This document shows, one piece after another, positions 11,340-57,530 of a stretch of DNA of 64,000 nucleotides; positions within the stretch are counted from its first letter, which is position 1; each line of letters starts with the position of its first letter. The stretch lies in assembly GCA_051294905.1 (NCBI GenBank), contig CM119371.1, positions 21,144,001 to 21,208,000 on the forward strand, given 5' to 3'. The stretch comes from Botryllus schlosseri. Its lineage: Eukaryota. The position numbers were made by a program, and so were the translations under genes. The notes beneath the pieces were generated by a model, which ran no database searches, was not told where the DNA came from, and saw only the letters and a list, made by a program, of their open reading frames with translations.

Positions 11340-11655
11340 CAGTGGTTCCCAACCTTGGGTCAGACACGCCACCCTTTATGATATGGAAAAAATTCGTGCC
11401 CCTCATTGTCATATCACAGAATCCATCCTTGATGCTAGCAACTCCAACAGATTGTTTGATGGCCTGGAAGGTTATAACTGTTGATGAGAGAATTTAAAAA
11501 TATGAAATTCGCTGTATATATAGAGAAACACGAGTGAATTGGAGGTAAATCGCGCAAAGCGCGAACATATTTTGACCACTTCTTCGCGGCCCCCGTTCTG
11601 AGCTTTCTCGTCCCCCTAAGGGGGGGGGGCGTGCCCACCAGGTTGGAAACCACTG
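11340..11655. mobile_element. hAT-type MITE
   Basis: TIR CAGTGGTTCCCAACC...GGTTGGAAACCACTG, flanked by ATCTCAAC(C) on both sides. Interior related to 23017-23245. Confidence 0.85.
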
Positions 11656-22567: not shown

Positions 22568-25500
22568 TCATTGACGTCCCTCGCGATAGTTTATCTCCCG
22601 ATCCAGCTGACACATTGTACAAGGCTGACAGAAGAAAAGTAGGCAGCAGTCATCGCAAATAGATCCCTGAAACGAAAAAAATAGATATTTCGTTTTATGC
22701 GACTAAAGAACTTTTTACGGGGTGTATCCATAGTGACGAACCTGAATTCCATGTTTGGCTCGGAATGACGCGCGCATAGCCAGGTGACCACCTGGGACAC
22801 ATCCAGATGGGTCCCCACTGCATCCGACGCAGCAGTCCTCTCCCATTCTCTTTGCGATGCACCCGTAATAAAAACAACGGCAGAAATATACGCATAAACC
22901 TGTTAATATTTGTGCGGCTTTAAAGTTTCAATCAAAATATAATAGCGACTGCTGTGGTGACTGCTTACGGTTAATCGATTGACGGTATATCGGCCAGCGC
23001 TACGTATGCAATAGGCCAGTGGTTCTCAACCTTCTTTTAGACAAGCCCCCTCCACCCCCCTTTAGAATAGTTATTATGACTGTTGATGAGAGGATTTCAA
23101 AATATGAAATTCAGTCTATATAGAGAGAATCCAGCTTGAATTGGAGGTAAATCGCACAGAGCGCAAAATATTGTTCCATTTGACCACTTGTTCGCGCCCC
23201 CTACAGATGCTTTCACGCCCCTCCCCCCCCGGTTGAGAACCACTGCAATAGGCTATAAGCTTTAACACAAACGAGTGTGCTATACGTGCACACTAATGAA
23301 GAAATGAAGTTTAAAAGGCAACATGATCTGTTATCGAATCACCGGAATCTCTCAGTACAATAGAGGTTTATTCCCCATGTTTTACAAGTAATAAATTCAC
23401 GCTTAGGAGTACAGAACTTCATGACACATTTGAATAAAATATTCATTTTATTCCCGAAGCTATTCGGCTGACCCTCGTCAGGGGAATATCGTCAGCAATA
23501 ATGCGAGGATTCGAATAACTATGTTCAGCAACAATATATATCGCTAATTATGACGTCACACGGAAAATATACAAAGTTAGGAAAACCGCGATTCTTTTAC
23601 CTTCGCTGATGAGATGCGTCGCTCACAGCTATCCGCGCGCGATAATTTCCTAGGCTCATTCGACATAAAGAGCCTTTTCACCAACGTACCACTAAATGAG
23701 ACGTTGAATATTTGCGCTGATGCTCTATATAACGGTAAGCTAATACCCCCTCCTTTCTCGAGAGCTACCTTCATGGAATTGATGAGAAACGCTGTGTGTT
23801 CTGTTGAATTTAGTTTCAACAATATCATGTTCCGACAATCTGATGGTGTAGCAATGGGATCACCATTGGGTCCTATTCTAGCCAATATATTTGTAGGATT
23901 TCATGAAGATAAGCTCTTCTCTTCTTCTATTAAACCGCCCTTATCATACCATCGCTATGTCGATGACACGTTCGTGATATTCGATAATGAATCTGACTGT
24001 GATACTTTCCTGGGAAATTTAAACAAACTACATCCAGCATTGCAATTCACGTCGGAAAAAGAAATTAACAATCGCCTGGCATTCCTTGACGTTCTTGTGG
24101 AGAAACGGGATGGAAAATTCCTTACCTCCGTTTATAGGAAGCCCACATTTTCGGGTCATTACCTTCGATGGAGCTCTTTCAGCCCAAAAAGTCGTAAAAT
24201 CAATTTAATCGGCACCTTGGTTCACCGGGCGTTGATGATTTGTTCCGAGGTCAAATTGAATAATGAACTTGACTACATCCGTAAAATTTTCATTGACAAC
24301 GGATACCCAGAGTATGTTATTAAGCGGACAATAAGTAAAAAGTTAAGTCATTGGAATGATACCAAACCAGAAGAAACCCCCGAAGTAATTTCTCGTGAAA
24401 ATAGGGATGTGTACATTCATCTTCCTTGGATTGGCCCGGTTTCTTATCGATTTGAGACACAGATAACTTCAGCAGTCTACCGCTGTTATCCAGCGGTGAA
24501 AACCAATGTTGTTTTTACCACGATACCAATGTTTCCTGCAACCCGAAAGGACGTTCTCCCGGCTATAAAACAAAGCAACGTAATTTATGAATTCAAGTGC
24601 CACTGCGATTGTCGGTACGTAGGGAGAACTTCCAAACGGTTGCAGGACCGTATCAAAGAACACATTCCACCATCTGTCAAATCTTATATCTCAAATTCGC
24701 AGCTTAACAATCCGCTTGTTCTTGAACATTACCAGGCCATGGGTCAAAAATCTTCTATAGGCAAACATTTACTAGAAAATCATACGTGTGCTGCTAACTA
24801 TCACGAGGACATGTTCTCTATATTGGCTAAGGGTCGCAATTTATTTCATTTGTCTGTTCTTGAGTCCACCATCATCACTATGAGCAAACCTAGTCTATGC
24901 CAACAGAAAGAATTTGTGTATCATTTGAAAATCGCGCATTAACTTGTTTTGCTTCGCTATCTCCATGCCAACGCTTCAGTTCTCTCGTTTTCCTAACTTT
25001 GTATATTTTCCGTGTGACGTCATAATTAGCGATATATATTGTTGCTGAACATAGTTATTCGAATCCTCGCATTATTGCTGACGATATTCCCCTGACGAGG
25101 GTCAGCCGAAAAGCTTCGGGAATAAAATGAATATTTTATTCAAATGTGTCATGAAGTAATAAATTGTTATCAACGTTGTAAGATTTTCATACGGGAAGAA
25201 TAAATATTTGAAAAATCGAGCGGAGGTCTCAAACAAGTGGCAAGCGAGAGCATTTTGTGTGGCCCGCGTCGGTATTTTGGATTTCAAGTGATCGACAATA
25301 TTTAACTCCGCATCACGTCACTTCAAAACTACTCCTAAAACTTGAAAATACACAATCAATTTCAATATCGCCCCACTTTAGGTAGGTTTATCAGCTGCCA
25401 TGCTTTGGAAGATGTACTATTCCGTCGCATTACCTGTTCATTACAATAAAACATGATCCGCTGATTATTCGTGACTGAAAATTGTGATTTTGGCTTATGC

Positions 25501-27407
25501 GCGATTGTTCGTAGAATTACACAACCTCGGACTGGCCGGGTGATAAAATGAAAACGACTCAAGTTATGTCGGTTCAAACTTTAAAATAAGAGAAGGAGTT
25601 GTGACTGGAAACGTGGTGGGTTGGTAAACAAACTATCAAACCGGCATTCTCATGAGAAATAGTAACTTATGAAATGGTAGTAGCGGGCTTTGCGTATAGC
25701 GTAGCGGATTTCGCTATCTAAGAAAGTATTAATAGCAACAATTGTCAGTCGTCAATTAAAGTTGACGAGTAGCAAAGTGGTACGTTCGACAGCTGTAACA
25801 CCACTACATATTTTAGGGATTGGACATGTTTCAAATAGAGTGTCACCGCTTGTTATAAATGCAACCTTACTTACACGACGGAATATCATCAAAGCAAGCC
25901 CATATGCTACTGCTCCAGTTTGCCATTCCAGGCTGGTTCACAACTGCCGCATCTTGCCGCATCACCACACCATGCTGATAAGTAACCATGGTTGGTTCCT
26001 GTTTAACCACCGCATCATCATACAGCGTCGGCTGTAGCGTCTAAAATTCAATAAAGTCAATTAAATATTCAACCACATTTTCGAAAGAAATCGTCGTCTG
26101 CCTTTAAGTATGATTGGACTGTGGTACTAATTGTTTTCTACCGTGAAGACCAGCGCTATTACGTACTTGATCTTGTTTAGATATGGTTAATACGGACTTG
26201 ATATACTCCGAAAGTCGGAATTCGCAGGATGTTATATAGGACTGAAATACACATATGAAGACCATTTGTTTCTCTATACTCAGGAAGTTCATTATGAACT
26301 CTGCCTACAGCAATTCCACTGTACGCCAGACCTCGAAAACGTATTAATTTTAGGAACCTGATCAAGACTTGATAAGCCAGAAAAAAGGAACCGAATGAAT
26401 TCCAAATCAAATATAAATGAACTAAATTTTTATCTCTGAGCTTTCAACAACTGCCATACATGTGTCTCTATAAACACCTATCATTAAAGGGATGTTTCTC
26501 AAACCTTTTGAGCGCGGTAGAAATCCGAGTTTTATTATTATCTTGCAAACCAAGCCTTACACGTTAAATGCAATGCATCTAAAGGTATAAAAACATTTTC
26601 ATGCCCTGTGAGAAGGTGTGAACATTATAAAAACATACGATACCTATAGTTCTTTGAAGTATGATTCATTACAAAGAATCATTGATTCTGTGAGGTTGTT
26701 ATGACGGAAATTTATTTTTCATAGATTTAAAGCACGGCGCTTTAGTATTCGGCTATTCGCTTACACCGATTATCGCCTTCCGTCAATCGTCTCCAGCCGT
26801 TGTCTTGTCACAACTGTTTACACGCAATTCAAGCTCATGACCCCTGAAATTCCAATTTGAATGTGCACCCCTACTTCACACTAATGAAAAGATAATTGAC
26901 AAACGTTACTGTGATAACCGTTGTTTAAACTGAGCAAGTCAGAGACAACCTATCTCTTCATATTCTACAATACCGGCTCATTATGTTACAGCATTAGTGA
27001 GAAACCAAATGTCAGACAAATCTTACAATGATATAAATCCCTAGTATATCATGGAAGGCGCATTCAACATGATTGAGCAATATCTTCGCGACAACTTTGT
27101 GGGCGTGTCAGTCATTGTCATCTTAACTGTGAATGCAGACTTGGAAATGGTCAAAGCATAGAAACAAATATTACAATCATCAGACGACCGTGGAGTTTTA
27201 TTTGGAACATACGTAGGCCTTATTGGATTGGGATTCGATTAATAACTTGATTTAATTTGCATTCGTTAAAATTGTGTTTGTAGTACGTTTAATTATTTCT
27301 GTGAATTCTAAATATTTGAAATATATATTGAAGAGGGCTTAGTACAAAGCGAGTTTCTAAGTTGATAATTTGCTAATATATTAAATAGCCCATTTACTCA
27401 CATTCAT
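22568..27407 (-). CDS. PLAC8/cornifelin-family cysteine-rich protein, copy 2 (4 coding exons, 142 aa)
   Basis: Exons 27407-27402 (ATGAAT|gtgagt), 26040-25875, 22899-22742 and 22666-22568. Phases and the last two exon lengths (158, 99 nt) match copy 1. Product: MN-TLQPTLYDDAVVKQEP...WSSSIWACFDDIPSC-LCVYFCRCFYYGCIAKRMGEDCC...HGIQ-GSICDDCCLLFFCQPCTMCQLDREINYREGRQ*. Confidence 0.9.
23017..23245. mobile_element. hAT-type MITE
   Basis: TIR CAGTGGTTCTCAACC...GGTTGAGAACCACTG; 8-bp TSD CAATAGGC. Confidence 0.9.
23449..23488 (-). ncRNA. Hammerhead ribozyme copy in the inverted 5' pseudo-LTR, core-mutated (GAAA>GAAU)
   Basis: Reverse complement of 25085-25124 except at position 23462. Confidence 0.75.
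23587..24942 (+). CDS. Penelope-like reverse transcriptase + GIY-YIG endonuclease (N-terminally truncated, open frame)
   Basis: Motifs DSFTF, SFDIKSLFTNVP, QSDGVAMGSPLGP, RYVDD, FLDVLV, VYRKPT; GIY-YIG-type VIYEFKCHCDCRYVGRT...RIKEH...LES. The frame is open from the inversion junction at 23587, so ATG 23614 is an internal Met. Confidence 0.93.
   Translation, partial: RDSFTFADEMRRSQLSARDNFLGSFDIKSLFTNVPLNETLNICADALYNGKLIPPPFSRATFMELMRNAVCSVEFSFNNIMFRQSDGVAMGSPLGPILANIFVGFHEDKLFSSSIKPPLSYHRYVDDTFVIFDNESDCDTFLGNLNKLHPALQFTSEKEINNRLAFLDVLVEKRDGKFLTSVYRKPTFSGHYLRWSSFSPKSRKINLIGTLVHRALMICSEVKLNNELDYIRKIFIDNGYPEYVIKRTISKKLSHWNDTKPEETPEVISRENRDVYIHLPWIGPVSYRFETQITSAVYRCYPAVKTNVVFTTIPMFPATRKDVLPAIKQSNVIYEFKCHCDCRYVGRTSKRLQDRIKEHIPPSVKSYISNSQLNNPLVLEHYQAMGQKSSIGKHLLENHTCAANYHEDMFSILAKGRNLFHLSVLESTIITMSKPSLCQQKEFVYHLKIAH
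25085..25124 (+). ncRNA. Minimal type I hammerhead ribozyme in the 3' pseudo-LTR
   Basis: TATTCCC-CTGACGA-GG GTCAG CC-GAAA-AGCT-TC-GGGAATA: 7-bp stem I, intact CUGANGA/GAAA core, palindromic stem III (AAGCTT), predicted cleavage after C25117; AATAAA follows. Confidence 0.85.
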
Positions 27408-28961
27408 CCTTTTTTTTCTGCAAACACTGAAAGTACCAAATAATCCCTTGCACTATTGTAATACAATGATAACATATATTAACTGCAAGTAGCACAAACA
27501 CTCTTGTTCTGTGATTAATTGGGCAGATGCATATTTTTAAGGACACCGCTATAATCGATTGCCGTTGTCCAATTCCAGTTCACATTCTATTCCAACTCGA
27601 ATCAGTGTCCATAAATAAATTGATAAAGCTATTTCGAAAGCTAACCAATATTATACCCTACTTATATATTAGCTAATTTGACGATGTACAATTATAATGC
27701 ATATAAATGGGTGAAGTCAGCATAAGCGTAAATCTTCACGAATATCACCATGCACTTCGTCGATATCATCCTTTGTTATTTTCGATGTCTTTGGTATAAC
27801 CGTATGGCTCGGTCATGCCATTTTGACGATATCTATATATATATTGCCGGTTGTTTGTAACGATAACGGAGCTTGAAAACAGAGTTTGGTTTGGTTAGAC
27901 TTAAGGAAGGGTTAGGGTTGTGATAGATCAGGGTTAAGGCTGGTGCCTCAAACTCGATATGGGTCGTGGAATGTATTCAGAGAATTTTTATCGCTTTCGA
28001 ACCGAACCATAGTAAATAAATTCCAAATGATTACTTCTAAATCCAGGCCCTCATTTTTGGTGCGACACTTCATCATCAAGTATATGCAAACAAAATTTAT
28101 AATATTGCGAATCATAAGATATTTGTTTTAGCATCACCTTTATTCGCAATAATTGAATTGTCCAGGATATAATGACAAGCCTGAGCTTCTGTAACATTAA
28201 TCCTCAACCCACCGGTTACGACTATATATAACTGACAATGCTCCTTTTCCATATGAGTTCGTCACTGCCTGAAGCCTTCGTGCAATATTTCAATCAACAA
28301 ACGTCGCTTGAACTGAATTATTATCCCATACGATCATAGAATTGAGTATCGAGCATACCCTGTGATCAGAATTCTCATTGACATACTAACTGAACCAGTG
28401 ATGTGAGATTTTGATCTATGAGCTTTGGGCATATGCGATCCTTGTGTCTCTATAAACATTTGTTGATGAGGGTGTTTATCAAACCTTTTGAGCGCGATTC
28501 AAATCCTAGTTTTGTTATTAACATACGAACCAAACCCGTACACGCGGAATGAAATGCATCTAAGGCTATAATAACATTTCCATGGCCTGCGAGAAGGTGT
28601 GGACAAACATACGCGTCCTAGTAGTACGAAGCATGATTCATTACAAAAAGTCATTGGTCAGTGAGGCTGATGTATCTGAACTTTATTGTTCAAAGTGTAT
28701 AATCACGAATCTTTTGTCTTCTGCTATATATGCTACAGCAATCGCTTCCTTCCGTCATTTGTTTCCATCCGCTGTCTAGTCACAGCTGCTCACTCGCAAT
28801 TTAAGCTCATGACCCCTGAATCATTGAAATTGGATTTTCATAGTTAGTCCCCTTTCACACTAAAGACAATATAATTGGAGTACGCTATTGCGATATCCGC
28901 GATTTGATCTAAGCCAGTCGGAAACTACCTCTCTCGCCCTCCTCTACAATACCTGCTCATT
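26428..28961. repeat. Diverged ~550-bp direct repeat pair (~26428-26982 and ~28409-28961)
   Basis: Shared blocks tgtgtctctataaaca, tcaaaccttttgagcgcg, aatgcatctaa, gagaaggtgtg, atgattcattacaaa, aagctcatgacccctgaa, ctacaatacc.gctcatta. Confidence 0.85.
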
Positions 28962-29373
28962 AACTCAATCCTATCCATTTTGAAATGGTGAGAGCTCTTT
29001 AGTTAGCAGCAACATGCATCAGATTCAGATATTTGAGCATGATAGTGAATATTCTCAATGAGCCTTGTGCAAATGTGTGCCGTATTTACTTTAGGCAGAT
29101 ATACGGTTTATGAACGGATAACATCGGGTTAACGTTGTTAAGTTTTCCTGGTAGATTACTATCATTATAACCATCGCATTCCCACACCGACCCTTAGGAT
29201 GTTTAAGGTCAACCTATACTTTTCACAAGCTTTGTACTCTGTTCATCCTAGCGAATCCAAATACCAGTTACAGGAAGAACGTTTAACATTTTTGCCACCC
29301 CATCGCATCCATTAGTTATTTTTGCCCAATAGTTTCTCTAAATCACCAACGTTGGGAACCACTGATTTATATG

Positions 29374-31404: not shown

Positions 31405-33283
31405 CAGTGCTCTTCAACCGGGGTTGTCGTACACCCTAGGGTGTACCAGAATTTGCAAAGGGTGTACCACTCGGATGGGGTGTACAGGGGTGTACCAGAT
31501 CCGAATTACAATGAGCCGATGGCTAGCTATCACAAAGGCAGGTTTATGGGTCAGTACAGGTTGACGCACAGGTTAATGAGCAATATGGTACGATGCTATC
31601 TCAAGCGTAATACCATAGTGTCCTATATGGTGTCGACACAAGCAAATCGCACGGTTCAATGAAATTGTATCACGTCACAGTTTCCATTTGGCTACAGGCA
31701 ATTTGACGGTGATTTTTGACCGACTTGCCGAGCATCAAATTTTATAAAACGGGTATCAATCGAAAGCTGCCGCCGTACTGATTACGAAAATATAAATTTT
31801 ATTCCGCTCGCGGCCCTGGAACCCCCACAATCAGCCTCTAATTTTTCATTGTTATGGAGATTGGCATTGGGACGCAACAATGCTGTCTGGCGAAACGACA
31901 GACGCAACAATACTGTCTGGCTCCCTTTTTCTCGAGCACCTGTCTCGTTTCGCTAGACAGCATTGTTGCGTCCCAATGCCAATCTCCATAACAATGAAAA
32001 ATTAGAGGCTGATTGTGGGGGTTCCAGGGCCGCGAGCGGAATAAAATTTATATTTTGGTAATCAGTACGGCGGCAGCTTTCGATTGATACCCGTTTTATA
32101 AAATTTGATGCTCGGCAAGTCGGTCAAAAATCACCGTCAAATTGCCTGTAGCCAAATGGAAACTGTGACGTGATACAATTTCATTGAACCGTGCGATTTG
32201 CTTGTGTCGACACCATATAGGACACTATGGTAATACTGTACACCGCTTGATTGTGATGTCATAAGCAAATATTTCTCCTATTAATTTAGCCGTCAGCAAT
32301 AGACCATTGGTTCCGTTTGGTGTTGAAAAGTATGCAGTTAACAAACATGTGTTCGGCTAGTATTTGTCTTTTAGTGATTTTTGAGGAAACCGCCGCGATA
32401 GCTCAAAGTCCTTGAATCGGCACTTCCTCCCTGACGTTAATAAATACCGCAATGCACATAAATGAAGTGACGTAGCCAGCCAGGGTCGAAACAACTTCCA
32501 TGTTGAAATCGAAACCCTTTTGTTTTAAAATGCCGATTTTATGTCCAATATTTCGACATACATTTGCAATTTAGTATTTTGGTATTAATGATGCAAATTA
32601 GCGACAATAGACTGTGTATAGCGGCATACGATCTGAGGTTACTGACATCTCTTGCAGCCCATGTGCTACTATCGACTGTGTATGGTGTGGCGCAGGCCTG
32701 ATACGCAGTAGGCTGGTGCGCCTGCTATCATCGCTGATCTGAATTACCGCTTCTGCAGCAGTAGCTTTCCTACTCTCTCCCCAATACTGTTACATTTAGG
32801 TTGATTATCGTTCGTAATGCCATGCTGTTTTGGGGCTGACACGAAATAAATTACAATTTGCGTGGCGGGCGGCCTAACTGGCTGCGAATAGACTCTGTGA
32901 CCAAATACTATTTTATTCATATCCAAAATTTTTGACGGCAATAAATCCACTTCTACTGGTTGGAATTGAACCAAATTTGAAGAACATCGTTTTTATAGAC
33001 AACCTAATAATTTCATGTGGTGAACAGATAAATTTGAAATTTTTCGTTATTTATTTTTATATAATAAATAGAAACTTTCTTCTCCCGTAGCAATGCGGAT
33101 ACTGGTTGGAATTGAACCAAATTTGGTGTGTAGGCTTAAGTTAGGTAACCTAACAATTTTATCAAGTAGCCAGTACGATTTGAGAAAAAAGTCATTTTTG
33201 AAGACCCCTCATGACCAGGGGTGTACGAGTTTTGAGCAAACGTTAAAAGGGTGTACCACGTCGAAAAAGGTTGAAGAGCACTG
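31405..33283. mobile_element. hAT-type element (nest layer 3)
   Basis: TIR CAGTGCTCTTCAACC...GGTTGAAGAGCACTG; TSD CAATAGAT; GGGTGTAC subterminal repeats. Confidence 0.9.
31614..32229. mobile_element. Palindromic MITE, probable P-element superfamily (nest layer 4)
   Basis: ~280-bp near-perfect inverted arms starting CATAGTGTCC; 7-bp TSD GTAATAC. CATAG termini with a 7-8 bp TSD fit the P superfamily. Confidence 0.85.
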
Positions 33284-36006: not shown

Positions 36007-36951
36007 TCACCCTGTAACATTCACGTGAATCTTGATGTGTTTGTTCATATTTGATTTTACATTGAATGCTTTCCCACATATTTCGCAATGGTAATTCACT
36101 GCCGCATGGACGGAATAGTGTTGTTTCAGGTGAGACTTCGTCATAAAGCGTTTCCCGCATATACCGCATTCATACTTGCTCTCTTTTAAGTGGATCATCT
36201 TCGTGTGTACCTTAACGTACGACTTCGAGCGAAATGTTTTACCGCAAATGTCGCACTGATGCTGGTTTTCTCCGGTGTGAATCAGGCAGTGGTATGTTAG
36301 ATGAGATTTTTGACCGAAACTTTTCCCGCATATATCACACTCGTATGCTTTTACTCCAGAATGAATTAAATAATGTGTTTTCAAATGACTTTTAGTTGTG
36401 AAGTCTTTTCCGCATATATGACACATATATTGTTTCGCTCTGGTGTGAATCATATAATGCCTTTTCAATTCACTTTCCCGTCCAAACCCCTTTCCGCATA
36501 TACTGCAGTCAAAATATTTCATTCCGGTATGAAACAGATAATGGGTCTTCAAATGGGTGTTTGTAACGAAAGCCTTACCGCATACATCGCATTTATAGTT
36601 TTTGATTCCCATGTGTGTAGCATAATGATTTGTAAGTTGAAAATTTCGCGAAAAGGTTTTCGCACATACATTGCACTCAAACTCTTTCAGTGCGGCGTGA
36701 ATTTTCATGTGCGTTCTCATGTCAAATTTCTTGATGAAAGGTTTCCCGCATATGTCGAACTCGAACTCTTTAATTCCGGTATGAATTTTCAAATGGACTT
36801 TCATGGCATGTTTCCGGGTGAATGCTTTTCCGCAGACCTCACACATATTTTCACTGCCCTCGTCACGATGTCGCGAATTGACTCTGTCCTTCCTCACTAT
36901 GCAAGGAGACTTCGATTCTATGACTTTCATCTGATTCAATACGCCGGCCAT
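36007..36951 (-). CDS. Tandem C2H2 zinc-finger protein 1 (10 fingers, ~314 aa from first ATG)
   Basis: Ten CxxC-x12-Hx3-4H units with TGxK-type linkers; finger 2 has C>F. The frame is open to 37056 but the first ATG is at 36951. No effector domain recognised. Confidence 0.88.
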   Translation of the reverse strand: MAGVLNQMKVIESKSPCIVRKDRVNSRHRDEGSENMCEVCGKAFTRKHAMKVHLKIHTGIKEFEFDICGKPFIKKFDMRTHMKIHAALKEFECNVCAKTFSRNFQLTNHYATHMGIKNYKCDVCGKAFVTNTHLKTHYLFHTGMKYFDCSICGKGFGRESELKRHYMIHTRAKQYMCHICGKDFTTKSHLKTHYLIHSGVKAYECDICGKSFGQKSHLTYHCLIHTGENQHQCDICGKTFRSKSYVKVHTKMIHLKESKYECGICGKRFMTKSHLKQHYSVHAAVNYHCEICGKAFNVKSNMNKHIKIHVNVTG

Positions 36952-38880: not shown

Positions 38881-39327
38881 CATAGTGTCCTATATGGTGT
38901 CGACACAAGCAAATCTCACGGCTCAGTGAAATTGTATCACGTCACAATTTCCATTTGGCTACAGGCAATTTGACAGCCATTTTGACCGGCTTGCCGAGCA
39001 CTTAATTTGGTGAAACGGATATCAATCGAAAGCTGACTCTGCACTGATTACGAAAATATAAATTTCATTCCGCTCACGGCCCTGGAACCCCCACAATCAG
39101 CCTCGAATTTTTCATTGTTATGGAGATTGGCATTGAGACGCAATAATGCTGTCTGGCGAAACGAGAGAATAACGAGAGACTAACTCTCTCGTTTCGCCAA
39201 ACAGCATTGTTGCATCACAATGTCAGCCTCAATAACAATGAAAAATTCGAGGCTGATTGTGGGGGTTCCAGGGCCGCGAGTGGAATAAAATTTATATTTT
39301 CGTAATCAGTGCAGAGTCAGCTTTCGA
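38881..39327. mobile_element. Second copy of the palindromic P-like MITE, right arm truncated
   Basis: Begins CATAGTGTCCTATATGGTGTCGAC as at 31614; folds back at ~39175. Confidence 0.85.
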
Positions 39328-39366
39328 CTTGACTCTGCACCTTACAAATGTGGTTTGACTCGTGAC

Positions 39367-44788: not shown

Positions 44789-45483
44789 CAGGGTATATCA
44801 ACACGCAGCCCGATGACCACACGAGACCTGATATCTAATTTCAACTTTCAGAAGAACGCTAAGTAAAACATTTTCAAATCCTGAAATTATTTTGAGTTTC
44901 AAAATATCGTTGTTGTTGTTTCAAGCAATACTCATGTGCCTAATGTAACTAATCCCTAAAGGCGGAAACGGCTTCAGGGATGGCAGCAGCATTCTCAGCA
45001 AAATCCGCGGATATAAATGGGCAATGGGCATATTACCATGATGGGCATATACCATGATGTGCAATTGCCAAGACACTGTCAGAACTGAGACGCTTAGAAA
45101 GCGGCTTGAGGCATCAACACAGGGTTAAGCTTTTCGGTTGGGGTAGTTTTTCAGCTAGAACCGCCTCTCGCGAGCCCAAATATCTCTTGCTTGGTTGCCG
45201 AAAATTGTTGTTAGGTATCGTGCGCAGCTCGTAGTTCAAAATGAAACGAAATTGATGATCATGATTTTTTTTGTCGAATTGTATTTCATTATTAAAATAA
45301 AAAAATTCTGTTCCCAGCATCTATGTCAAAGAGAACAGCGTTTCACTGAGGGAACGATTTAAAAACGTGGTTGCGAAAAGTGTGGCTTATTGTTTTTGTG
45401 TCTCGATATCTTGATTGTGCAGCCCGCGGTCTCTACGAAATTGCAAACGTGACCTGCGACCCGCTTTGAGTTGACGAACCCTG
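44789..45483. mobile_element. Old hAT-type element predating the duplication
   Basis: CAGGGTATATCAAC...GTTGACGAACCCTG; TSD CTGTAAAT; homologous relic at ~53450-53986. Confidence 0.75.
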
Positions 45484-45825
45484 CTGTAAATGCATTTTCC
45501 TCAAACCTTTAGCACACGAATTCTTTGTGAACACAATGTGACCAGTCATGTAGAAGTTGTATTGATAAAAACATTTCCTCGAATTATGTGAAAGACACAC
45601 TTTCCAATAGCGATGATAATTTCTAGTACGAGATCCATCTCAACTGAATTTCAGTAAATTGTCGCCACCTTATTTTTGTCATTCCTCGACACAGGTGAAT
45701 GTTTTTCAACGAAATTCTTCGCACGTATATATATCGCACTCATACTCTTTCACTTCATCATGACTCTTGCTGTGTCTTGGATTCGGCATTGAATGCTGTC
45801 GCACGTACCTCACACATACGCATGA

Positions 45826-46887
45826 CTATTGTCGATATTTCATCTCCGTATGGACGGAATAGTGACTTATAAGGCTAGACTTTTTCGTAAAGCCCTTTCC
45901 GCATATTTCGCACTCATATTCATTTGATTTTAGGTGTACCGCCTTTATGTGTGATTTAATGTACGATCTCAAACGAAATGCTTTACCGCAAATTTCACAC
46001 CTGTGTTCCTTCTCTCCGTTGTGAACCGAATTGTGGGCTTTGAGTAGGTATTTATTACTGAAACCTTTTCCGCAGACATGACACACAAAATCTTTCGCGC
46101 CAGTGTGGGTCAAATGATGTTTTTTCAAATCGCCCTTTGCTACGAAATCTTTCCCGCAGACATGGCAATAGTAACCCTTCGTCCCGGCGTGATTCAAATA
46201 ATGACGTACAAGTTGAGCATTTTGTCGAAAACGTCTTCCGCATATATGACACTCATGATTTTTGGCTGGTGCATGAATCAACGAGTGTGCTTTCAAATTA
46301 CCCTTTAAAACGAAACCTCTCCCGCATATCGAACATACGTGATCTTTCAAACCGGCGTGAATCACATAATGGTAGTTTAATTGACCTTTTCGTCCGAAAG
46401 CTTTCCCGCATATGTCACACTCGTAATTCGTTGATCCGACATGCATAAAATAATGTGGTTTCAAATGACCCTTTTTTGTGAAACCTTTACCACATATATC
46501 GCACTTGAACTCTTTAAATCTGTCGTGACGTTTCATGTGGTTTTTCATGTCGTACATAGTGGTGAATGGTTTCGAACATACACCGCACTCGAACTCTTTC
46601 AATCCGAGGTGAATTTTCATGTGTCTTTTCAAATTTGATTGCCAGATAAATAGCTTCCCACATATATTACACTCGTGGTTTTTCTTTTCCTTGTGGTATG
46701 AATGATGAGATAATAGGGCACAACTCCTCACAAATCTTTTTCCGCATATGTCACACTCAAACTCCTTAACTCCGATGTGAATTTTCTTATGGACTCTCAT
46801 GTAATACTTGCTCTTGAAGCACTTTCCACAGACCTCGCAAACATTGCCATTGCAGCCTTGACGATGTTGAAAATGGGGTTCCATCAT
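45826..46887 (-). CDS. Tandem C2H2 zinc-finger protein 2 (12 fingers, 353 aa)
   Basis: Twelve intact C2H2 fingers in an uninterrupted ORF; in-frame TGA shortly upstream of the ATG. Confidence 0.92.
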   Translation of the reverse strand: MMEPHFQHRQGCNGNVCEVCGKCFKSKYYMRVHKKIHIGVKEFECDICGKRFVRSCALLSHHSYHKEKKNHECNICGKLFIWQSNLKRHMKIHLGLKEFECGVCSKPFTTMYDMKNHMKRHDRFKEFKCDICGKGFTKKGHLKPHYFMHVGSTNYECDICGKAFGRKGQLNYHYVIHAGLKDHVCSICGRGFVLKGNLKAHSLIHAPAKNHECHICGRRFRQNAQLVRHYLNHAGTKGYYCHVCGKDFVAKGDLKKHHLTHTGAKDFVCHVCGKGFSNKYLLKAHNSVHNGEKEHRCEICGKAFRLRSYIKSHIKAVHLKSNEYECEICGKGFTKKSSLISHYSVHTEMKYRQ

Positions 46888-48202
46888 TTTTACTTCGGTT
46901 GGAATACCTTGTTGCAGGAATGCTCATGCGATTCAATGTAGAACCTCTCCTTCGATGTACCCAACGAATATCGCGAGCAATACAGTTTGATGCTGTCTGT
47001 TGAAATCTAAAAATTATAACTGCATGGAATGCGGCACTTTGAATCTCAGAATATCACTGCTTTGCACAAAACATGGCCAGAACAGGTTACAATAGTCATG
47101 ACGTCATACAGAGTCTAACATCGCCTGGTCGGCATGCACATCATCTCGCGTTAAAGATGCGGATTTATTTAAATGCTATTTTCAACTTGGCGACATCACA
47201 AGTAAGTGAACTTCTAAAAGGTGCGAAATGAAAGTGGAAGTAATCTATCAACGTGACTATCCGAGGCACGTTTACACGAAGCATTGCTAGCGCTGCGTAA
47301 GAGTTGGCTTCATAGAGGGGCATTGCTGCGTACTGTATCAAAGACAGTCGCCAGGTTTTGATTACCAACGCCTAGCTAGTAATAAATTCACATATTTTGA
47401 TAGCATTCGTATCAGCATGTATTGAATGATGTTACATAAAACAGAACGATGTAATACTCCGCAATTTTGTGGTGTTTTGACCTGATTAAAATAATAATAA
47501 GCTGATACTGATACTGACGTAATAACCACAGTTATTAAATATTTACGAATTCGTCTGAGTATATTTGCTACACAATTGTAATTTGATAAGCTTTTTGGGC
47601 GCTGTGCTAGACTTCCACCTGCCATGACAAAACCGGACCAATTCAAGAATGTATAGGGCGATGTTCTATCGGGCTACTCCCGCAGCCATGATCAACAGTG
47701 CCGCAAACTCGAGTCTTCAGCATCTTGTGATTCAATACTTTGTTACTAAGGGATGTTAAATCCAATTTTGGTCGCGGGATGAAAAAGCGATCATAAATTT
47801 CAAACTCATTTGGGCCATGCACCGGAAAGGCGATTAGGTTTTTCGGATCAGCGCCACTCGTACTTACGTTCCAGTCCTCTTAAGGTTTAGCTATATTAAT
47901 ATTTATCTATCCAATATACGAGTTTGATGCTGTGACTGAAAATTCTGCAACGGACCAAAATGCAATGTCACCACAATGATATATGACAAGAATTGGCGGA
48001 TATGCCTATGCACGAGCCGCATATCTAAAGTCTTTGTTTTAACAGAGCCGCAACGCAAAAATTCAAAAATGAGAATTCATTCCGTCACAATGAAATGTAG
48101 GCTATCGAATACAGTTTATAACTGTGTCGTTACAATGTGCGTCTTCTCTTAGGCTGCAAGGTGTTTGAAGTCACGCTGGCATGAAATCAACGCAGTGAGG
48201 AG

Positions 48203-49192
48203 CAGTGTTGGGATCAAGTCACTACCTTCGAGTCACGAGTCATTTTGAGTCATTGCACATTTTGACTCGAGTCAAGTCAAGTCAATCGATTTTCAAAGGT
48301 GACTCGAGTCAAGTCAAGTCACTCGATTTTTGGAGGTGACTCGAGTCAAGTCGAGTCAAGTCAAGTCAAGTCACGAGTCAAGTCACATTTCAAGTCAAGT
48401 TGCCTTTTCGATGTAGGCCTATGTATGAGGCATGATTACGTCATTGCAATTTGCTAGCTGTCTGAAATACAGTTTGAGTGGTCATTGGTCATTGATTCCG
48501 AACCGGAACGAATATAGAGTTAAATATACACGCAAGAAGGCGCTCTATCGCTCACATATACGTAGAAATGTTAAACTACGTAATTGCATAGCCTCAGTTT
48601 AAAGTTACCAGCCAAAATAGAGAATAGGGAAACGAATTGATAAGATGCAATACGTTACCCATTTACAAATAGATATGATACCATTCGAGCCTGCGCCAAT
48701 GATTGAGGACTATATAAACTATATTCGACTTCAATTTCAATAAAACAATTGGTTTGACTAAGGTAAGATAAGAACAGAGAACAGAAATAGACATTTTGCT
48801 ATTCTATTACTTCACCACTAGAGTTACGACAACGTAAGCTTTAAGCTTCGATCACTTCGTTTGCAGTCAATCTATTTGTGAGAGAACAATCGAGGCTAGG
48901 TGAAATGCACGCTCATTGAATGATTGGTCGCTCTCACGGATTACACAAGCGTTTCGCGAACAATCCGAACATATCCGAAATACAATGATTTTTATCGATA
49001 CCGATTACTTGATGACTTGAAATTGACTCGTGAATTTTGCTCCGAGTCACGAGTCAATCCACATTTCTGATACGCCGAGTCAAGTCAAGTCAAGTCATTT
49101 TGGCAAACTGACTCGAGTCAAGTCAAGTCATGCGAAAAAGGTGACTCGAGTCTGACTCGAGTCAAGTCATGACTCGAGTCATCCCAACACTG
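48203..49192. mobile_element. hAT-type element with GACTCGAGTCAAGTC repeats
   Basis: TIR CAGTGTTGGGAT...ATCCCAACACTG; TSD GTGAGGAG; empty site in the paralogous unit at ~57910. Confidence 0.93.
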
Positions 49193-51649
49193 GTGAGGAG
49201 CAGTTCCTTCAAGTGCTTATGAGCAACTTAGGGAAGAATTAAGCTCCGTAATATTCTTGCTCTCTAAATCTGTCTCCGGTGGGTAACTCGTGGCAAAGTT
49301 TTAGTGTTACGATTAGTAGCTTTTTAAATAATGAAATGACCTTGACCGATATGGACAGAGGCATAAATCCACTATCACTGAATGAAAACTCTTCTCATAT
49401 TCTGCTTTAAATGTTCTATTTTCCTGTTCATACTAGCCTTTCCTTCAATCATCGATCAACGACATTATCTTGGCCAAATTCGACAGTTATTGCTAGCCTT
49501 TACAATACAAATGGGAGAGCTGTACTCACCACCAGCCAGGCCACTACCGTGATTACTTAATTATCAGGCACATTGTTAAACGCCGTGATTTATCATTGAT
49601 GGATGACTAATGACCATGTACCATTTTTACGGGTGAATCATTTATGTGCACTCGGTTCAAGAACTCTATTGCAAAGTTCGAACCATGTAGTGTAGCGCCA
49701 CCATCCAAGAAATTTTACAGTAGTGTTACGTAAACCAAAAGGAAAGAAACAACACAATACACATGTTGATAAAACGAGATGAAACGCGTAAATTTATAAT
49801 CAGGTTGCACCTCTCTAGGAAAATAGTGAAACTCATGTGCAATCAGTAAAGAGCTGCAATCAAAGACTCGAAGAACCGTATTATCGCCATATTTCTGAAC
49901 GTGCAAACGATAGCTGGTTACTAATCCTCACTGACACAGACAAAATTACATTATACTCGTAGGCACGGTGGAATCGCTAGACTAGTAAAATGTGACATAA
50001 TGAATTAACAGACCGTGAATTTCGTGCTTCAGCGCAAACTCGTGAGAATATGAATTAACAGCGCATAGCATCTGCCTAATTACTGACAAGTTTTCAAACT
50101 GCAAATGCGAATCGTCTGTGATACCGCATAGAAACTTATCATATCAAAATACGAACAAATAAATCCTCTCATGCCTCAATAATCATAGCAGTATAGTAAT
50201 ATAGTATATACTACCAGCTTAACGTCATAATTGCTTGTTGCGATGTTATCTAAAAAGGGATATATTGAATGTGATACAAAATATATCTTTAGGATTATCA
50301 GAAATTAAACCAAATTAACTTACAGTAAATCGTGGCTCGGTATAATATATGCAGCCTTATTTGGCATGTGGTGCTCACACACATTCTTTGCGTCATGGTG
50401 ACATGCTGCGTCTACAATTAAAATGCAACAATGGCGACTTGCAAATCTCAAATTATACATGGCAGAAAGATCAATGCATGATTTGACGAGGCCGCTAATT
50501 TTCCCCGCATACAACGAGAACGGCACATCCCTCTAATCACCCTATCAACTAAGTATTGTAAGAAGAGGCCAATCATTTTGATAACAGTAGTTATCGGATT
50601 TTATAGTGTGTTGAGACTGCGTAATCGTAGTCGGTAATACGTCAGTCTAGGTGCGATGTTTATGACTACAATAATCGAATCGAATCGACGAATTATTGTA
50701 ATCACGCTAGCAAATTACTTTTATTGTTGGTTGTAATATCATTTTTATCACAGCTCCAGTGCGAGCCTAGTCTAGTCATTTAGGACAAAAACGAGTTAAT
50801 TCAAATTCAAAGTTGAAGAATATTATTAGTAAAGTATTAGTAAAAGAATATTTATTGCTTGAGTTTATAATTTTTACATTATATAGCCTTCATTCATATT
50901 CTGATATCGTCTCCTTTACTTTTCTTTACTTTCTCATCATCAAGGACTTTGACAACACTTGCAAGTGAATACATTTTGATGCAAGCATCTGACAAGAGTC
51001 AAGCATAACCCGCTGATTCAGCCGATTCTTAGAGCTTTCAAAACTTCAACTATGTACTACAACCTGAGCCCAATAAGATAACACAAATTATAGTGTCACT
51101 GTTAAGCTTTATATTTGTATTCAATAATGATATATTCTTTCTGAAACTAGGAATCCGTCGCTACTTGCATAAGAGCCTATGCTTTCACTCGTTGAAAACA
51201 AGGCATATAGGCTACGACGGTTCCCTTCACAATGAAGCGATCATGCTTTAGACGTTTTTGTGAAGCAGCTGTTGTCTGTTCATCATGTATTTCGTACCTC
51301 AACATACCCTGAATTAATCCTAAATCATTATCTGTCAACCTACATACAATGCGCTTTCAGAATCGCCGCCGGTAGCAGACTCCTTGATCACCTACGCAGC
51401 AAGCTGCTGCTGTTGTGGTCATTGAAGCATAGCCGATTAGCCAATCAAGAGCCGTGGTTTCGTGATTGCCAGTCTTCTTGCCGTTCTATGGTAGGTGGCA
51501 CGCCCATTCTTCGGTAGCTACTTTCAAACGCTTTGCACGAAATCTTAACGGCCTTCCTGTGAGCTTCTTTCAGGCTTAGTGTCGTTTTTTATCAATAATC
51601 TATAGAATAAGACATTACAACGGAGGATTCGTAAGATTTTCCAAATTAT

Positions 51650-53225: not shown

Positions 53226-54320
53226 AATAAAGCATCGATATTCTGTTCTTCCGATATTCTTATTTGCGTGTTGTATGAAACCAATATAGCCTACTTATTT
53301 AGGTGTTTTAGAGTCGTTTTGAATGAGTTCAAAAATAGTAGGCGCGCTGCCATCGGATCTCATTGAATGATATTTAATTTTGTTGGCCAATACGCATTCG
53401 ACGATGTGTACGAAGTGACATGTATTCCTTCAAACCTAACACACCAATGGCGTATTCACTTCAACACGCGACCCGATGGCCGGATGAGCTGAAGCAGCTT
53501 CAGGGATGGCAGCAGCATTCCGAAGAAAATTAGCGGGTACGAATGAGCATATCGTATCGACGTGCAAAAGCCAAGACACTGTCAAGACTGATACGCTTAC
53601 AAAACAGCATAGTGTATCACCATAAGATTAAGCTTTTCGTTGCGTTCATCTAATACAGTGTCTCCCTAGCGCTCGCCCCAATATCGATGCCTTGGTTGCC
53701 GAAAATCCATGTTACGTATCGTGCGCAGCTCACAGCTCAAAATAAAATGAAATTTATAATCACGATAATTTTTGGTCAAAAAGTATTTCTTTAATAAAAA
53801 ATACTTTGTGTAGCTATGCCCGTAGCCCCTGTTAGAGACAACAGCGATCAGCTGAAATAAAGAGTTACAAACGTGGTTGTTAAACAAAGTGTGACCTATT
53901 TTGTCTCGATATTGCGATTCATGCGACCGGCGACATCGACCAAATTTCATGTGACCCGCGACCCGTTTTGAATTGGCGGCCCTTGCTGTAAATGCATTTT
54001 CATTAAACCTACGGAAAACCAATCTTCTGTACAAGTTGTATTAATCCAAACGTTTTCTCAAATTATGTAAAACACACATTTTCTGGCAGCGATGATATTT
54101 TCTAGTACGAAGATCAATCTCCACTGGATTGTTCATTGAATTGTCGTCTTCATATTTTTGCCGTGTCCATAATTTCTGAAATGGCGCACAAGTCGATGTT
54201 TTACAACGAAATTATTCGCGCGTATACATCTCACTCCTATTGTTCAACTGCATCGTGAATCTTGTTGTGTTTTGGATTCGACATTAGATGGTGTCACATG
54301 TACCTCACACATACGGATGC

Positions 54321-55382
54321 TTACTGTCGGTATTTCCTTTGCGTGTGGACGGAATGGTGACTTATGAGAGGAGACGTTTTCGTAAACCCCTTTCCGCATA
54401 TCTCGCACTCGTATTCCTTTGTTTTCAGGTGTACCGTCTTCATGTGTAATTTAAGGTACGATCTTAAACGAAATGCTTTACCGCAAATGTCACACTCATG
54501 TTCCTTCTCTCCGGTGTGAATCGAATAGTGGTTTCTAAATAGGCATTGTTTACCGAAACTCTTTCCGCATACATGACACACATAATCTTTCGCGCCCGTG
54601 TGGATCGAATGATGTTTTTTCAAATCACCCTTTGCTACGAAATCCTTTACGCAGACATGACATCGGTAATCCTTCGTCCCGGCGTGAATGAAATAATGAC
54701 GTTTCATGTCAGCATTGTGTCGAAAACGTTTTCCGCATACATGGCATTCGTGATCTTTGGCTAGTGTATGAATCAACGAGTGTGTTTTCAAATTACTCTT
54801 TAAAACGAAACCTCTCCCGCATATCGAACATATGTGATCTTTCACGCCGGCGTGAATCAAATAATGGTAGTTCAATTGACCTTTTCGTCCGAAACCTTTC
54901 CCGCATATATCACATTCGTAATTCGTTGATCCGACATGCATAAAATAATGTGTTTTCAAATGAACCTCTGCTGTGTTACCTTTACCACATATATCGCACA
55001 TGAACTCTTTAAATGTGTCGTGGCGTTTCATGTGGTTTTTCATTTCGTATTCGGCGATGAATCGTTGGGCACATACACCGCACTCGAACTCGTTCAATCC
55101 GAGATGTCTTTTCATGTGTGTTTTCTAATTTGATTTCTTGGTAAACAGTTTTCCACATACATCGCACTTGTGGTTTTTCATATCCTTATTGGATGAAGTA
55201 TGAAATAATTGGGTACTCCTTTGCGCAAATCTTTTTCCGCATATGTCACACTCAAACTCCTTAACCCCGGTGTGAATTTTCATATGGACTCTCATGCAAG
55301 ACTTGGTCTTGAAGCATTTTCCACAGACCTCGCAGACATTGCCATTGCAGCCTTCGAGATGTTGAACATGGGGCTCCATCAT
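54321..55382 (-). pseudogene. C2H2 zinc-finger protein 3, paralog of ZF2 with in-frame nonsense codon
   Basis: Same 1062-nt span as 45826-46887; TTG(Leu)>TAG at 55125-55127 in finger 3; finger 2 has also lost its second His. Confidence 0.85.
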
Positions 55383-56505
55383 TTTTAACTCGGTTGGGAT
55401 ACTTTGTTGCAGCGATGCTCATGCGGTTCAATGCAGTCGCAACTAATATCGCGAATGATAGATTTGATGCTGCGTGTTACAATCTAGAGAAGATAACTGC
55501 ATGTAATGCGGCTTTTAGAATTTCAGAATATCACTATACCTTGCACACACCATTGAACAGAACAGGTTACAATAGTCATGACTTCATACACAGTCTAACA
55601 TCGCATGGTCGCCATGCAAATCTTCTCGTGGCAATGATGTGGATATATGTAAATGCTATTTTGAACTTGCCGGCATCACAAGTAAGTGATTTTACTTCTA
55701 AAACCTTCGAAATGAGAATCGAAGTATTATGTAAACGTGAATACCAGAGGGCTGTTTACAAGTAGCATTGCTAGCGCTGCGCTAGTTGGCTTCATAGGAG
55801 GGGCATTGTTTCGTATTGTATCAGAGACACTCGCAAGGATTTCATTACCAACGCAAAGCTGTCTAGTAGTCCAAGTCAGTGGTTCTCAACCGCCGATCCG
55901 CGGCAAGTTTCCTACCGGTCCGCGGAGTATATCAGAATTTTATATCTTAATTCAAAATGAAAGAAGATGAACACTTATCCACTAATTAGTGAAATAAAAC
56001 ATCAGAATATAAATAGATACGGACGTATTTTCAACATTATGTCGCAATAGAGCAGTGGTTCTGAAATCGGCGGCGTGAAAGCATATTAAGTGGGGCGCTA
56101 AGTCGCCAGAGAGAAATGATGACATATCAGTATGTATTGAATGATATGTGAATGTGAATGTAATACATGCAATACGCAGTGCCGTGGTGTTCTGAAATGA
56201 TTAAAATTATAACAAATTGATACTGACACTGACGTAATAACCACACAGTAATTGCATATTTGCGAAGTCCCAATCGTCATTTGATTAGCTTTTTGTCGTT
56301 CTGCTAGACCTCTACCTACCATAACAAAACCTTACCATTTCAAGAATGTATAGGACGATGTTCTATCATGCTAGCTAGGCCCGTAGCTGTGATCAGCATC
56401 GCGCCAAAACCTGAGTCTTCAGCATCTTTTGATTCAACATTTTCGTAATATGGGATGTTAAATCTAATTTAGGTCGCGGGATGGAAAAGCGATAATGAGT
56501 GTTAA

Positions 56506-57530
56506 CCCTAGAATGCATACACGGAAAAACTTACGCTAATGCATAACAGGGGTCATTTTGACCCGTATTGCTATTACATGTGATTCTACTAAAACGACAA
56601 TAAATATTTTTCTTCTTGTGCTTTCCTAAGATCTTCCATTGGTGTAATGATGACACATCTAGAGTTTTTGCTGCATTTTAAATGAACAACCGGAGAAAAA
56701 CAGCGTAAAGAAGTCGGTAATAAAATCAAAGAAAAGTCCAGAACAGATCCACTACAAACAACAGCCTGATTCATTCACTGTACTTATTGCCTGTGATCAT
56801 GGTTACGCTGTATTCTGGGCACACGGGTCTGCAACATCGGGAGCAACATTTTGCAAGTTTCTAATCCTTTGCGTCTGGACATAAGGAACATCGCTTTCTC
56901 TTCTGCAACGTGTTTGCTGTTTGCAGGGATGAACTTCGAAAACCTCACAACATCCTCTCTTGTGGCTCTATGGTGTTTTATTGTCTATCTTGTCATCATT
57001 TTGGGGCAAAATGAGGCAGTTAGAAAGATATGAATGAAACCTCGTTGCTTTGAACCTTGTCCACTCTTATAATCAACTTATAGCCTACTTGTGTGAATAT
57101 GGATTATGCTTGTCTGAGTATGGTAATGGTAATGCATTTAGAGCTGCGATGTCGAGCAGATTGTAAATAAGAACTAGAGGCCATCGGCAGGATTGTCGTT
57201 TGCAAGTAAATGTTTGAACCATTTGGTCAATCAACTCAACACCAATCTTTGTCTGGTTATAAAATCTGATGATTGCAGGCCTCTTTTTTCAGGTATTTTT
57301 CTATTCCATTTGCTGCGGGTCAAAATGACCCCTGTTATGCATTCTCGGGGTATTTAGTGAAAAATGCATTTTTCTTGTCAAACGTAAAATTTTACCGAAC
57401 AACTTTTTTCTCATCATGTATAAGTATAAAAGACTAACAAAGTCAATAAATTTCAGGACTCAATTCCCAATATGTGTTATGATGAATAGCTTCGTATGGG
57501 TCATTTTGACCCCTGTTATGCATTCTAGGG
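56506..57530 (-). mobile_element. Internally deleted piggyBac transposon
   Basis: TTAA TSD, TIR CCCTAGAATGCATA. Minus-strand relic KKRPAIIRFYNQTKIGVELIDQM...RWPLVLIYNLLDIAALNA and Cys-rich tail RKRCSLCPDAKD*KLAKCCSRCCRPVCPEY. Absent from unit A. Confidence 0.93.

Follow-up and report, generated by a model that had tools for sequence, protein, structure and literature searches.

Whether a self-cleaving ribozyme that has landed in an intron of a host gene comes under selection to be silenced is the question raised by a Penelope-like insertion in the 64-kb stretch of Botryllus schlosseri DNA analyzed here (the window). The insertion carries two inverted hammerhead-bearing arms, and the arm lying in the sense of the host transcript has a changed catalytic core. 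The original prediction took this as a sign that selection had removed a self-cleaving site from the host transcript and named chance as its own alternative. The evidence described below favors chance, and we assign a probability of about 0.72 to the reading that the substitution is a neutral copying error or a later point mutation in a young, polymorphic insertion, in which the motif is predicted to be masked anyway.

The host is a probable gene of the PLAC8 family on the minus strand. Its four-exon model comprises a two-codon exon 1 (27402..27407), placed by donor motif and frame only, exon 2 (25875..26040), exon 3 (22742..22899), and exon 4 with the stop codon (22568..22666). The model encodes 142 amino acids with 16 cysteines and no internal stop, and its three introns of 1361, 2975, and 75 nt are all of the GT-AG type. 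When the exons were scanned singly, one of three matched Pfam: exon 4 aligned with positions 78-101 of PF04749 (E 8.7e-5), with a score of 23.8 bits where the cut-off for whole proteins is 34.4. Exons 2 and 3 scanned alone had no Pfam match, and a homologue search with exon 3 returned no candidate. A PLAC8-like paralog is located about 10 kb away (13147-11912, minus strand), with an identity of 79-83% in exons 3-4 and of 46% in exon 2; the two genes are a tandem pair. The RNA run X23 contributed 149 reads, with a depth of 1-4 per direction over exons 3-4, and no RNA-supported splice joint was found among the 15 of 43 joints listed. The direction of transcription and the label of intron 2 (22900-25874), in which the insertion sits, are those of the gene model.

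Intron 2 also contains other high-copy repeats. A small element at 23017-23245 ends in terminal inverted repeats of 15 bp and is flanked by a target duplication of 8 bp (23009-23016 and 23246-23253); it is of high copy by contig depth, has a related copy at 11472-11614, and resembles a hAT-type MITE. An old direct duplication with 73% identity (26426-26983 and 28408-28962, about 1980 bp apart) has one copy in intron 1 and the other upstream of the modelled exon 1. Elsewhere in the window, an inverted repeat of at least 795 bp (1-795 and 1770-2564) with one mismatch, at 745, and a spacer of 974 bp runs off the window start, and a descriptor search detected no hammerhead in it. Two long palindromic repeats of one family (31607-32236 and 39022-39332), which are 94% and 88% self-complementary, are probably foldback or MITE-like elements. 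Large diverged duplications with internal repeats and identities of 65-78% (36102-36871, 44962-50554, and 53488-59339) suggest a tandem gene cluster.

The Penelope-like insertion itself spans 23398..25156 on the plus strand (1759 bp) and consists of a tail, an inverted pseudo-LTR, a 5'-truncated body, and a second pseudo-LTR. Its borders are given by an empty-site joint that was found in a read comparison covering four of 24 listed runs, namely X1, X2, X7, and the RNA run X23. In X7, which is from another sample, a contig runs directly from 23388 to 25157 and leaves out 1768 bases, and 9 letters at the joint fit either side. This contig is an empty allele, and the insertion is polymorphic and not yet fixed. 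The empty allele also fixes the target duplication at 9 bp, or 12 bp with shared bases; the left copy (23386..23397) has its 9-bp core at 23389-23397 and three bases shared with the element end, and the right copy is found at 25154..25165. The tail of about 18 nt (23398..23415, minus strand) is attached to the inverted arm only. Loose ends at 23399 were seen in 22, 14, and 17 contigs and in 8 reads across the four runs and share a consensus end, and the tail in other family copies appears to extend some bases further.

A 453-codon open frame (23581..24942, plus strand) encodes a reverse transcriptase (RVT_1, E 3.8e-8) followed by a C-terminal GIY-YIG region. The latter had no direct Pfam match in this frame, but the frame aligns in full length to relatives that have one; three of these were scanned, with a best E of 3.9e-6 for P0012. 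No additional zinc-finger-like motif between reverse transcriptase and endonuclease was seen by eye in the frame or the alignment; assignment to the Penelope/Poseidon clade would call for this absence and for a matching position in a reverse-transcriptase tree. The body starts at 23587 with a blunt junction (23586/23587) and lacks the N-terminal part: six longer relatives have 175-350 additional residues at the N-terminus, and the match begins at their residue 176-349. The closest protein relative is 60% identical, and the family is without match to a named entry. Further copies of the family were not found in the 64-kb window. Alignment searches returned relatives at 24 loci in genome contigs and a weak one in viral contigs, and single-protein locus searches found none. 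The only locus with an exact 21-base pattern in metagenome contigs, L001, was rejected as a relative, being a short match that has no hammerhead context and lies on an unrelated-looking contig. Penelope-like elements with minimal hammerheads also occur in contigs labelled bacterial or archaeal, in the assemblies G001 and G002 (L003, L015, and others) and at L002, L006, L011, L016, L020, and L025; these contigs are likely eukaryotic contamination, in G001 and G002 most probably from a host.

Four features of canonical EN+ Penelope-like elements are present, namely a frame with reverse transcriptase and GIY-YIG, an inverted pseudo-LTR with 5' truncation, a one-sided tail, and a hammerhead in the pseudo-LTR. 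The described members of this class (Craig et al. 2021, PMC8557442; Frangieh et al. 2024, PMC11167929) share the order of reverse transcriptase and GIY-YIG, strong 5' truncation, the hammerhead in the pseudo-LTR, an inverted pseudo-LTR at the 5' end, a tail at one end, and an AT-rich target, and an adjacent inverted 5'-truncated copy with a one-sided tail is reported in the same papers. The insertion described here differs in its tail, about 18 nt against the 30-40 described there, and in that no full-length copy was seen and the best protein relative reaches only 60%. The element is a young, 5'-truncated Penelope-like insertion of published architecture. Its two arms would stem from separate events of reverse transcription and have been joined head to head, a mode of insertion already described for such elements.

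The arms are 171 nt long each. The host-sense, inverted arm covers 23416..23586 on the minus strand, and the element-sense arm, which is antisense to the host gene, covers 24987..25157 on the plus strand. In the assembly sequence their alignment has one mismatch in 171 positions, 23462 against 25111, as the original prediction had claimed. The right arm contains an intact minimal type I hammerhead motif (25085..25124, plus strand) with a predicted cut after the C at 25117. It is composed of a 7-bp stem I, CUGACGA, a stunted stem II of 9 nt, GAAA, and the palindrome AAGCUU, and all 12 core positions of the CUGANGA/GAAA/UH pattern are occupied as expected, including stem I and G10.1-C11.1. The corresponding host-sense motif (23449..23488, minus strand; predicted cut after 23456) differs by the substitution at 23462, which is A15.1 to U in hammerhead numbering. 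Read in ribozyme sense, C-GAAA-AGCU-UC in the right arm faces C-GAAU-AGCU-UC in the left. The substitution abolishes the A15.1-U16.1 pair, leaving U15.1 opposite U16.1, and it also reduces the AAGCUU palindrome to the inner AGCU by loss of its end pair. The change of GAAA to GAAU with a broken palindrome that the original prediction described was found, with the loss confined to the end pair, the antisense copy is intact as claimed, the mutated arm is, on the gene model, the host-sense one in intron 2 of a PLAC8-family gene, and the attribution to Penelope pseudo-LTR hammerheads agrees with the anatomy of arms, core motif, and reverse transcriptase plus GIY-YIG region.

The intact motif with its 7-bp stem I is beyond chance, as it occurred in none of 200 simulated 64-kb windows; with a stem I of 4 bp or more, matches occurred in 22 of 200. 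The Rfam hammerhead models matched neither arm, whether the gathering score or a limit of E 10 was applied. Metazoan minimal type I hammerheads (PMC4209133, PMC6765202) have the same full core with an extra base between A9 and 10.1, the same G10.1-C11.1 pair, a short palindromic stem III suited to dimer formation, and opposite-strand pairs close together. They differ from the present motif in having a 6-8-bp helix as stem II, instead of 9 nt between A9 and G12, and the present motif has a longer stem I of 7 bp and possibly a loop II pseudoknot. The hexamer 25077..25082 (plus strand, mirrored in the left arm) is complementary to loop II (25101-25106), with a duplex energy of -8.1 kcal/mol, and is predicted as a possible pseudoknot partner. 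In a model without pseudoknot or Mg2+, even the intact motif favors a fold with CUGAC paired to loop II, and pairing of loop II with the hexamer would compete with this inactive hairpin, which makes an activating pseudoknot possible. Work from 2017 by Lunse, cited in PMC6765202 and reportedly on dimer cleavage, may be relevant to both the stunted stem II and the pseudoknot.

In natural hammerheads, changes at 15.1/16.1 cost at least tenfold activity, and a mispair at this position is treated as disqualifying (PMC3088659). For this reason, the left copy has likely lost its activity as cutting strand; the active natural variant described in the same source has the swapped pair U15.1-A16.1, whereas U15.1 faces U16.1 in the left arm. 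The change also deepens the predicted inactive monomer fold by 3.1 kcal/mol, from -14.0 to -17.1 kcal/mol.

The base at 23462, which is part of a stretch of four A in a high-copy repeat, might also be an assembly or sequencing error. No read supporting it is among the 40 of 289 variant rows listed, and 13 contigs of X1, but none of X2 or X7, lack one base in the A run of the right arm (at 25109). The change at 23462 is, however, a substitution and not a run-length slip, and where the flanks are unique, contigs of the likely source sample agree with them in every letter across 250-750 bases. In addition, two other minority bases of this copy are supported by contigs whose depth in X2 (11.8 and 19.5) is close to that of a single locus. 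An error is considered very unlikely. A-to-I editing, which reads as G, was rejected as source of the change, since it would yield G and not U.

The case for selection starts from the position and orientation of the change, which fit the assumption that insertions with an active host-sense intronic hammerhead are purged and that this one persists because its core is broken. As described above, substitutions at 15.1/16.1 are costly, and intronic self-cleavage can lower mRNA levels. The fast engineered ribozyme T3H48 in a zebrafish intron reduced expression up to 20-fold in an orientation-dependent manner, and flipping it off (RiboFlip) rescued expression (PMC11856399); cleavage by the CPEB3 ribozyme competes with splicing (PMC10919898). 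Hammerhead-bearing retrozymes are reported to be depleted from Xenopus introns (10.64898/2026.07.22.740005). The distance of 556 nt from the host-sense cut site to the 3' splice site of intron 2 would give a short window for cleavage before exon 3 is made. CPEB3 and T3H48 resemble the present case in that the ribozyme is sense to the pre-mRNA in an intron and orientation decides the effect, but they are single motifs with measured cleavage and, as described in these sources, have no antisense arm in the transcript. The present motif belongs instead to a class that is weak and depends on dimers, and a complement of 171 nt precedes it in the transcript. According to Cervera and De la Pena (2014, PMC4209133), a single minimal hammerhead had no detectable cleavage and dimers cleaved at a low level, and the hammerhead of an Anolis element cut only with the element protein (PMC11167929), which argues against selection at this site. 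Craig et al. describe the in vivo role of Penelope-like hammerheads as open (PMC8557442). In X23, no pile-up of read ends was observed, at a depth of 1-4 that is too low to count.

The inverted layout of the insertion also argues against selection. A transcript crossing such an inverted insertion would carry one sense hammerhead together with its full complement. In host direction, the antisense arm precedes the sense arm by 1661 nt, so that, being made about 1.66 kb earlier, it would pair with the emerging sense arm. When host-sense RNA spanning the insertion was folded in silico, 170 of the 171 bases of the left arm paired with their mirror base, only 23462 being unpaired, and the arm-arm duplex has an energy of -304 kcal/mol. 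The antisense arm is thus predicted to mask the host-sense motif within the shared pre-mRNA, mutated or not, although this is an equilibrium prediction and local folding could outpace pairing over a distance of 1.4 kb. For the host transcript, the likelier consequence of the insertion would be a 170-bp double-stranded stem in the intron. Because the mirror arm is predicted to mask the motif regardless, a chance mutation is favored over selection.

The role of position 15.1 leads to the same assessment. Stems I and III would be intermolecular in a double hammerhead, and CUGANGA and GAAA of one molecule would flank the cut site of the other. Position 15.1 serves the cutting of the partner, and therefore intact element RNA could still cut the mutant copy. 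The predicted double-hammerhead energies are -20.7 kcal/mol for intact/intact, -19.6 for intact/mutant, and -18.5 for mutant/mutant; the mixed dimer bears a penalty of 1.1 kcal/mol against intact/intact, and its junction with the cut site of the mutant retains A15.1-U16.1 and five stem III pairs. A dimer fold of the motif is possible on paper. By this topology, A15.1 to U would remove the ability of the left copy to cut, as monomer or homodimer, but not its ability to be cut, and would not be the change that best protects host RNA. The mutant copy is likely crippled as cutting strand, with a cut site and an unchanged stem I still usable by an intact partner; its deeper inactive monomer fold could lower trans cutting, too. 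A literature search for studies on mixed hammerhead dimers found nothing relevant. A further point against selection is that a host-sense AATAAA at 23452 (minus strand), overlapping the 3' strand of stem I in the same arm, has been left intact; intron 2 has four such hexamers in host sense, three of them within the element. The polymorphic state of the insertion and the nearby paralog likewise argue against selection. The idea of selection is thus unsupported at this locus and regarded as very unlikely.

If the change did not arise in this copy, GAAU could have pre-existed in the source copy or subfamily, the two arms having been copied from different RNAs. The family is abundant, as concluded from the summed contig depth on the element, which exceeds the depth on the flanks by a factor of hundreds to thousands (this ratio is not a copy number), and it is variable, as three runs have indels in stem I at 25087-25089. 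Such motifs are described as extremely variable within genomes (PMC4209133). The arms appear to be separate products, with a tail on only one and a blunt junction at 23586/23587. A weak ribozyme may also leave more of its RNA uncleaved and thereby available for copying through the cut site; uncut RNA was the main template in vitro (PMC11167929). Against this stands the identity of the other 170 arm positions, which fits one donor in a family where many contigs are only 90-95% alike. Moreover, the intact arm spans the cut site, too, and no GAAU row is among the 40 of 289 variant rows listed, which do not include those for 23462 and 25111. A donor variant is accordingly unlikely, if somewhat less so than an error or selection.

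A neutral origin of the substitution in this copy agrees with its background divergence. The copy departs from most family contigs at four sites of the open frame among the 40 of 289 variant rows listed, and three of these change an amino acid; one difference encodes T where 28 of 60 relatives carry K. The two minority bases with single-locus depth in X2 mentioned above belong to these four sites. One to four changes per 1359 bases predict 0.25-1.0 changes across both arms, so that one change in 342 bases fits the background of this copy. What counts against neutrality is that the sole arm difference strikes a key core pair of the host-sense arm. The core of this arm makes up 12 of 342 arm positions (3.5%), or 34 of 342 (9.9%) with stems and palindrome, which amounts to a 1-in-29 to 1-in-10 event at a single locus.

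Surrogate pairs were taken from contigs of the two assemblies labelled bacterial, G001 and G002, in which the exact hammerhead pattern had 33 and 42 matches, respectively; 144 of 146 loci, many of them overlapping, were used, and L001 and L026 were left out. Across 18 inverted-arm comparisons, two of which share an arm, 7 core changes were counted among 109 substitutions, against 9.3 expected if changes were uniform. Both cores were intact in 13 comparisons and one core was changed in 5. Removal of five near-centre palindromes left 13 comparisons with 3 core changes (4.9 expected), and the 11 young pairs had one (1.7 expected). One-sided core changes thus arise at about the neutral rate in these pairs, at low power: the surrogates are from other organisms and families, their gene context is unspecified, one intact arm was required, and only 11 pairs are young. 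The arm differences may also stem from selected donor lineages. The absence of an excess of core changes in surrogate pairs, together with the single site available here, speaks against selection, and with the background divergence makes chance, the alternative named in the original prediction, the better reading.

The second haplotype of the source individual may itself be empty. Both runs compared from the likely source sample have a contig, at a depth of 9-10, that follows the left flank to 23385 and then continues with 106 letters off the insertion, as from an empty second haplotype, while the joint of the X7 type has depth 0 in these runs. Heterozygosity of the source individual for the insertion is only suggested by this pattern.

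The single locus, consisting of a standard insertion and one substitution, matters little. Among the papers listed by the literature searches, no study dealt with orientation-biased core decay or orientation-dependent inactivation of intronic Penelope hammerheads. The paired-arm design offers a cheap way to ask whether Penelope hammerheads harm host transcripts. As inverted pairs are predicted to mask themselves in read-through transcripts, selection should show in solo host-sense copies and not in pairs. Provided that dimers cut in trans, the cut site and the 3' strand of stem I would be its expected targets. That Penelope hammerheads cut host pre-mRNA in vivo, with intronic insertions being filtered so that those with broken host-sense cores persist, is very unlikely on the present evidence. 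If it were true, an inverted pair would be a built-in matched control, with a sense and an antisense arm of the same age and place, and ribozyme activity in vivo would be measurable from genome sequence alone.
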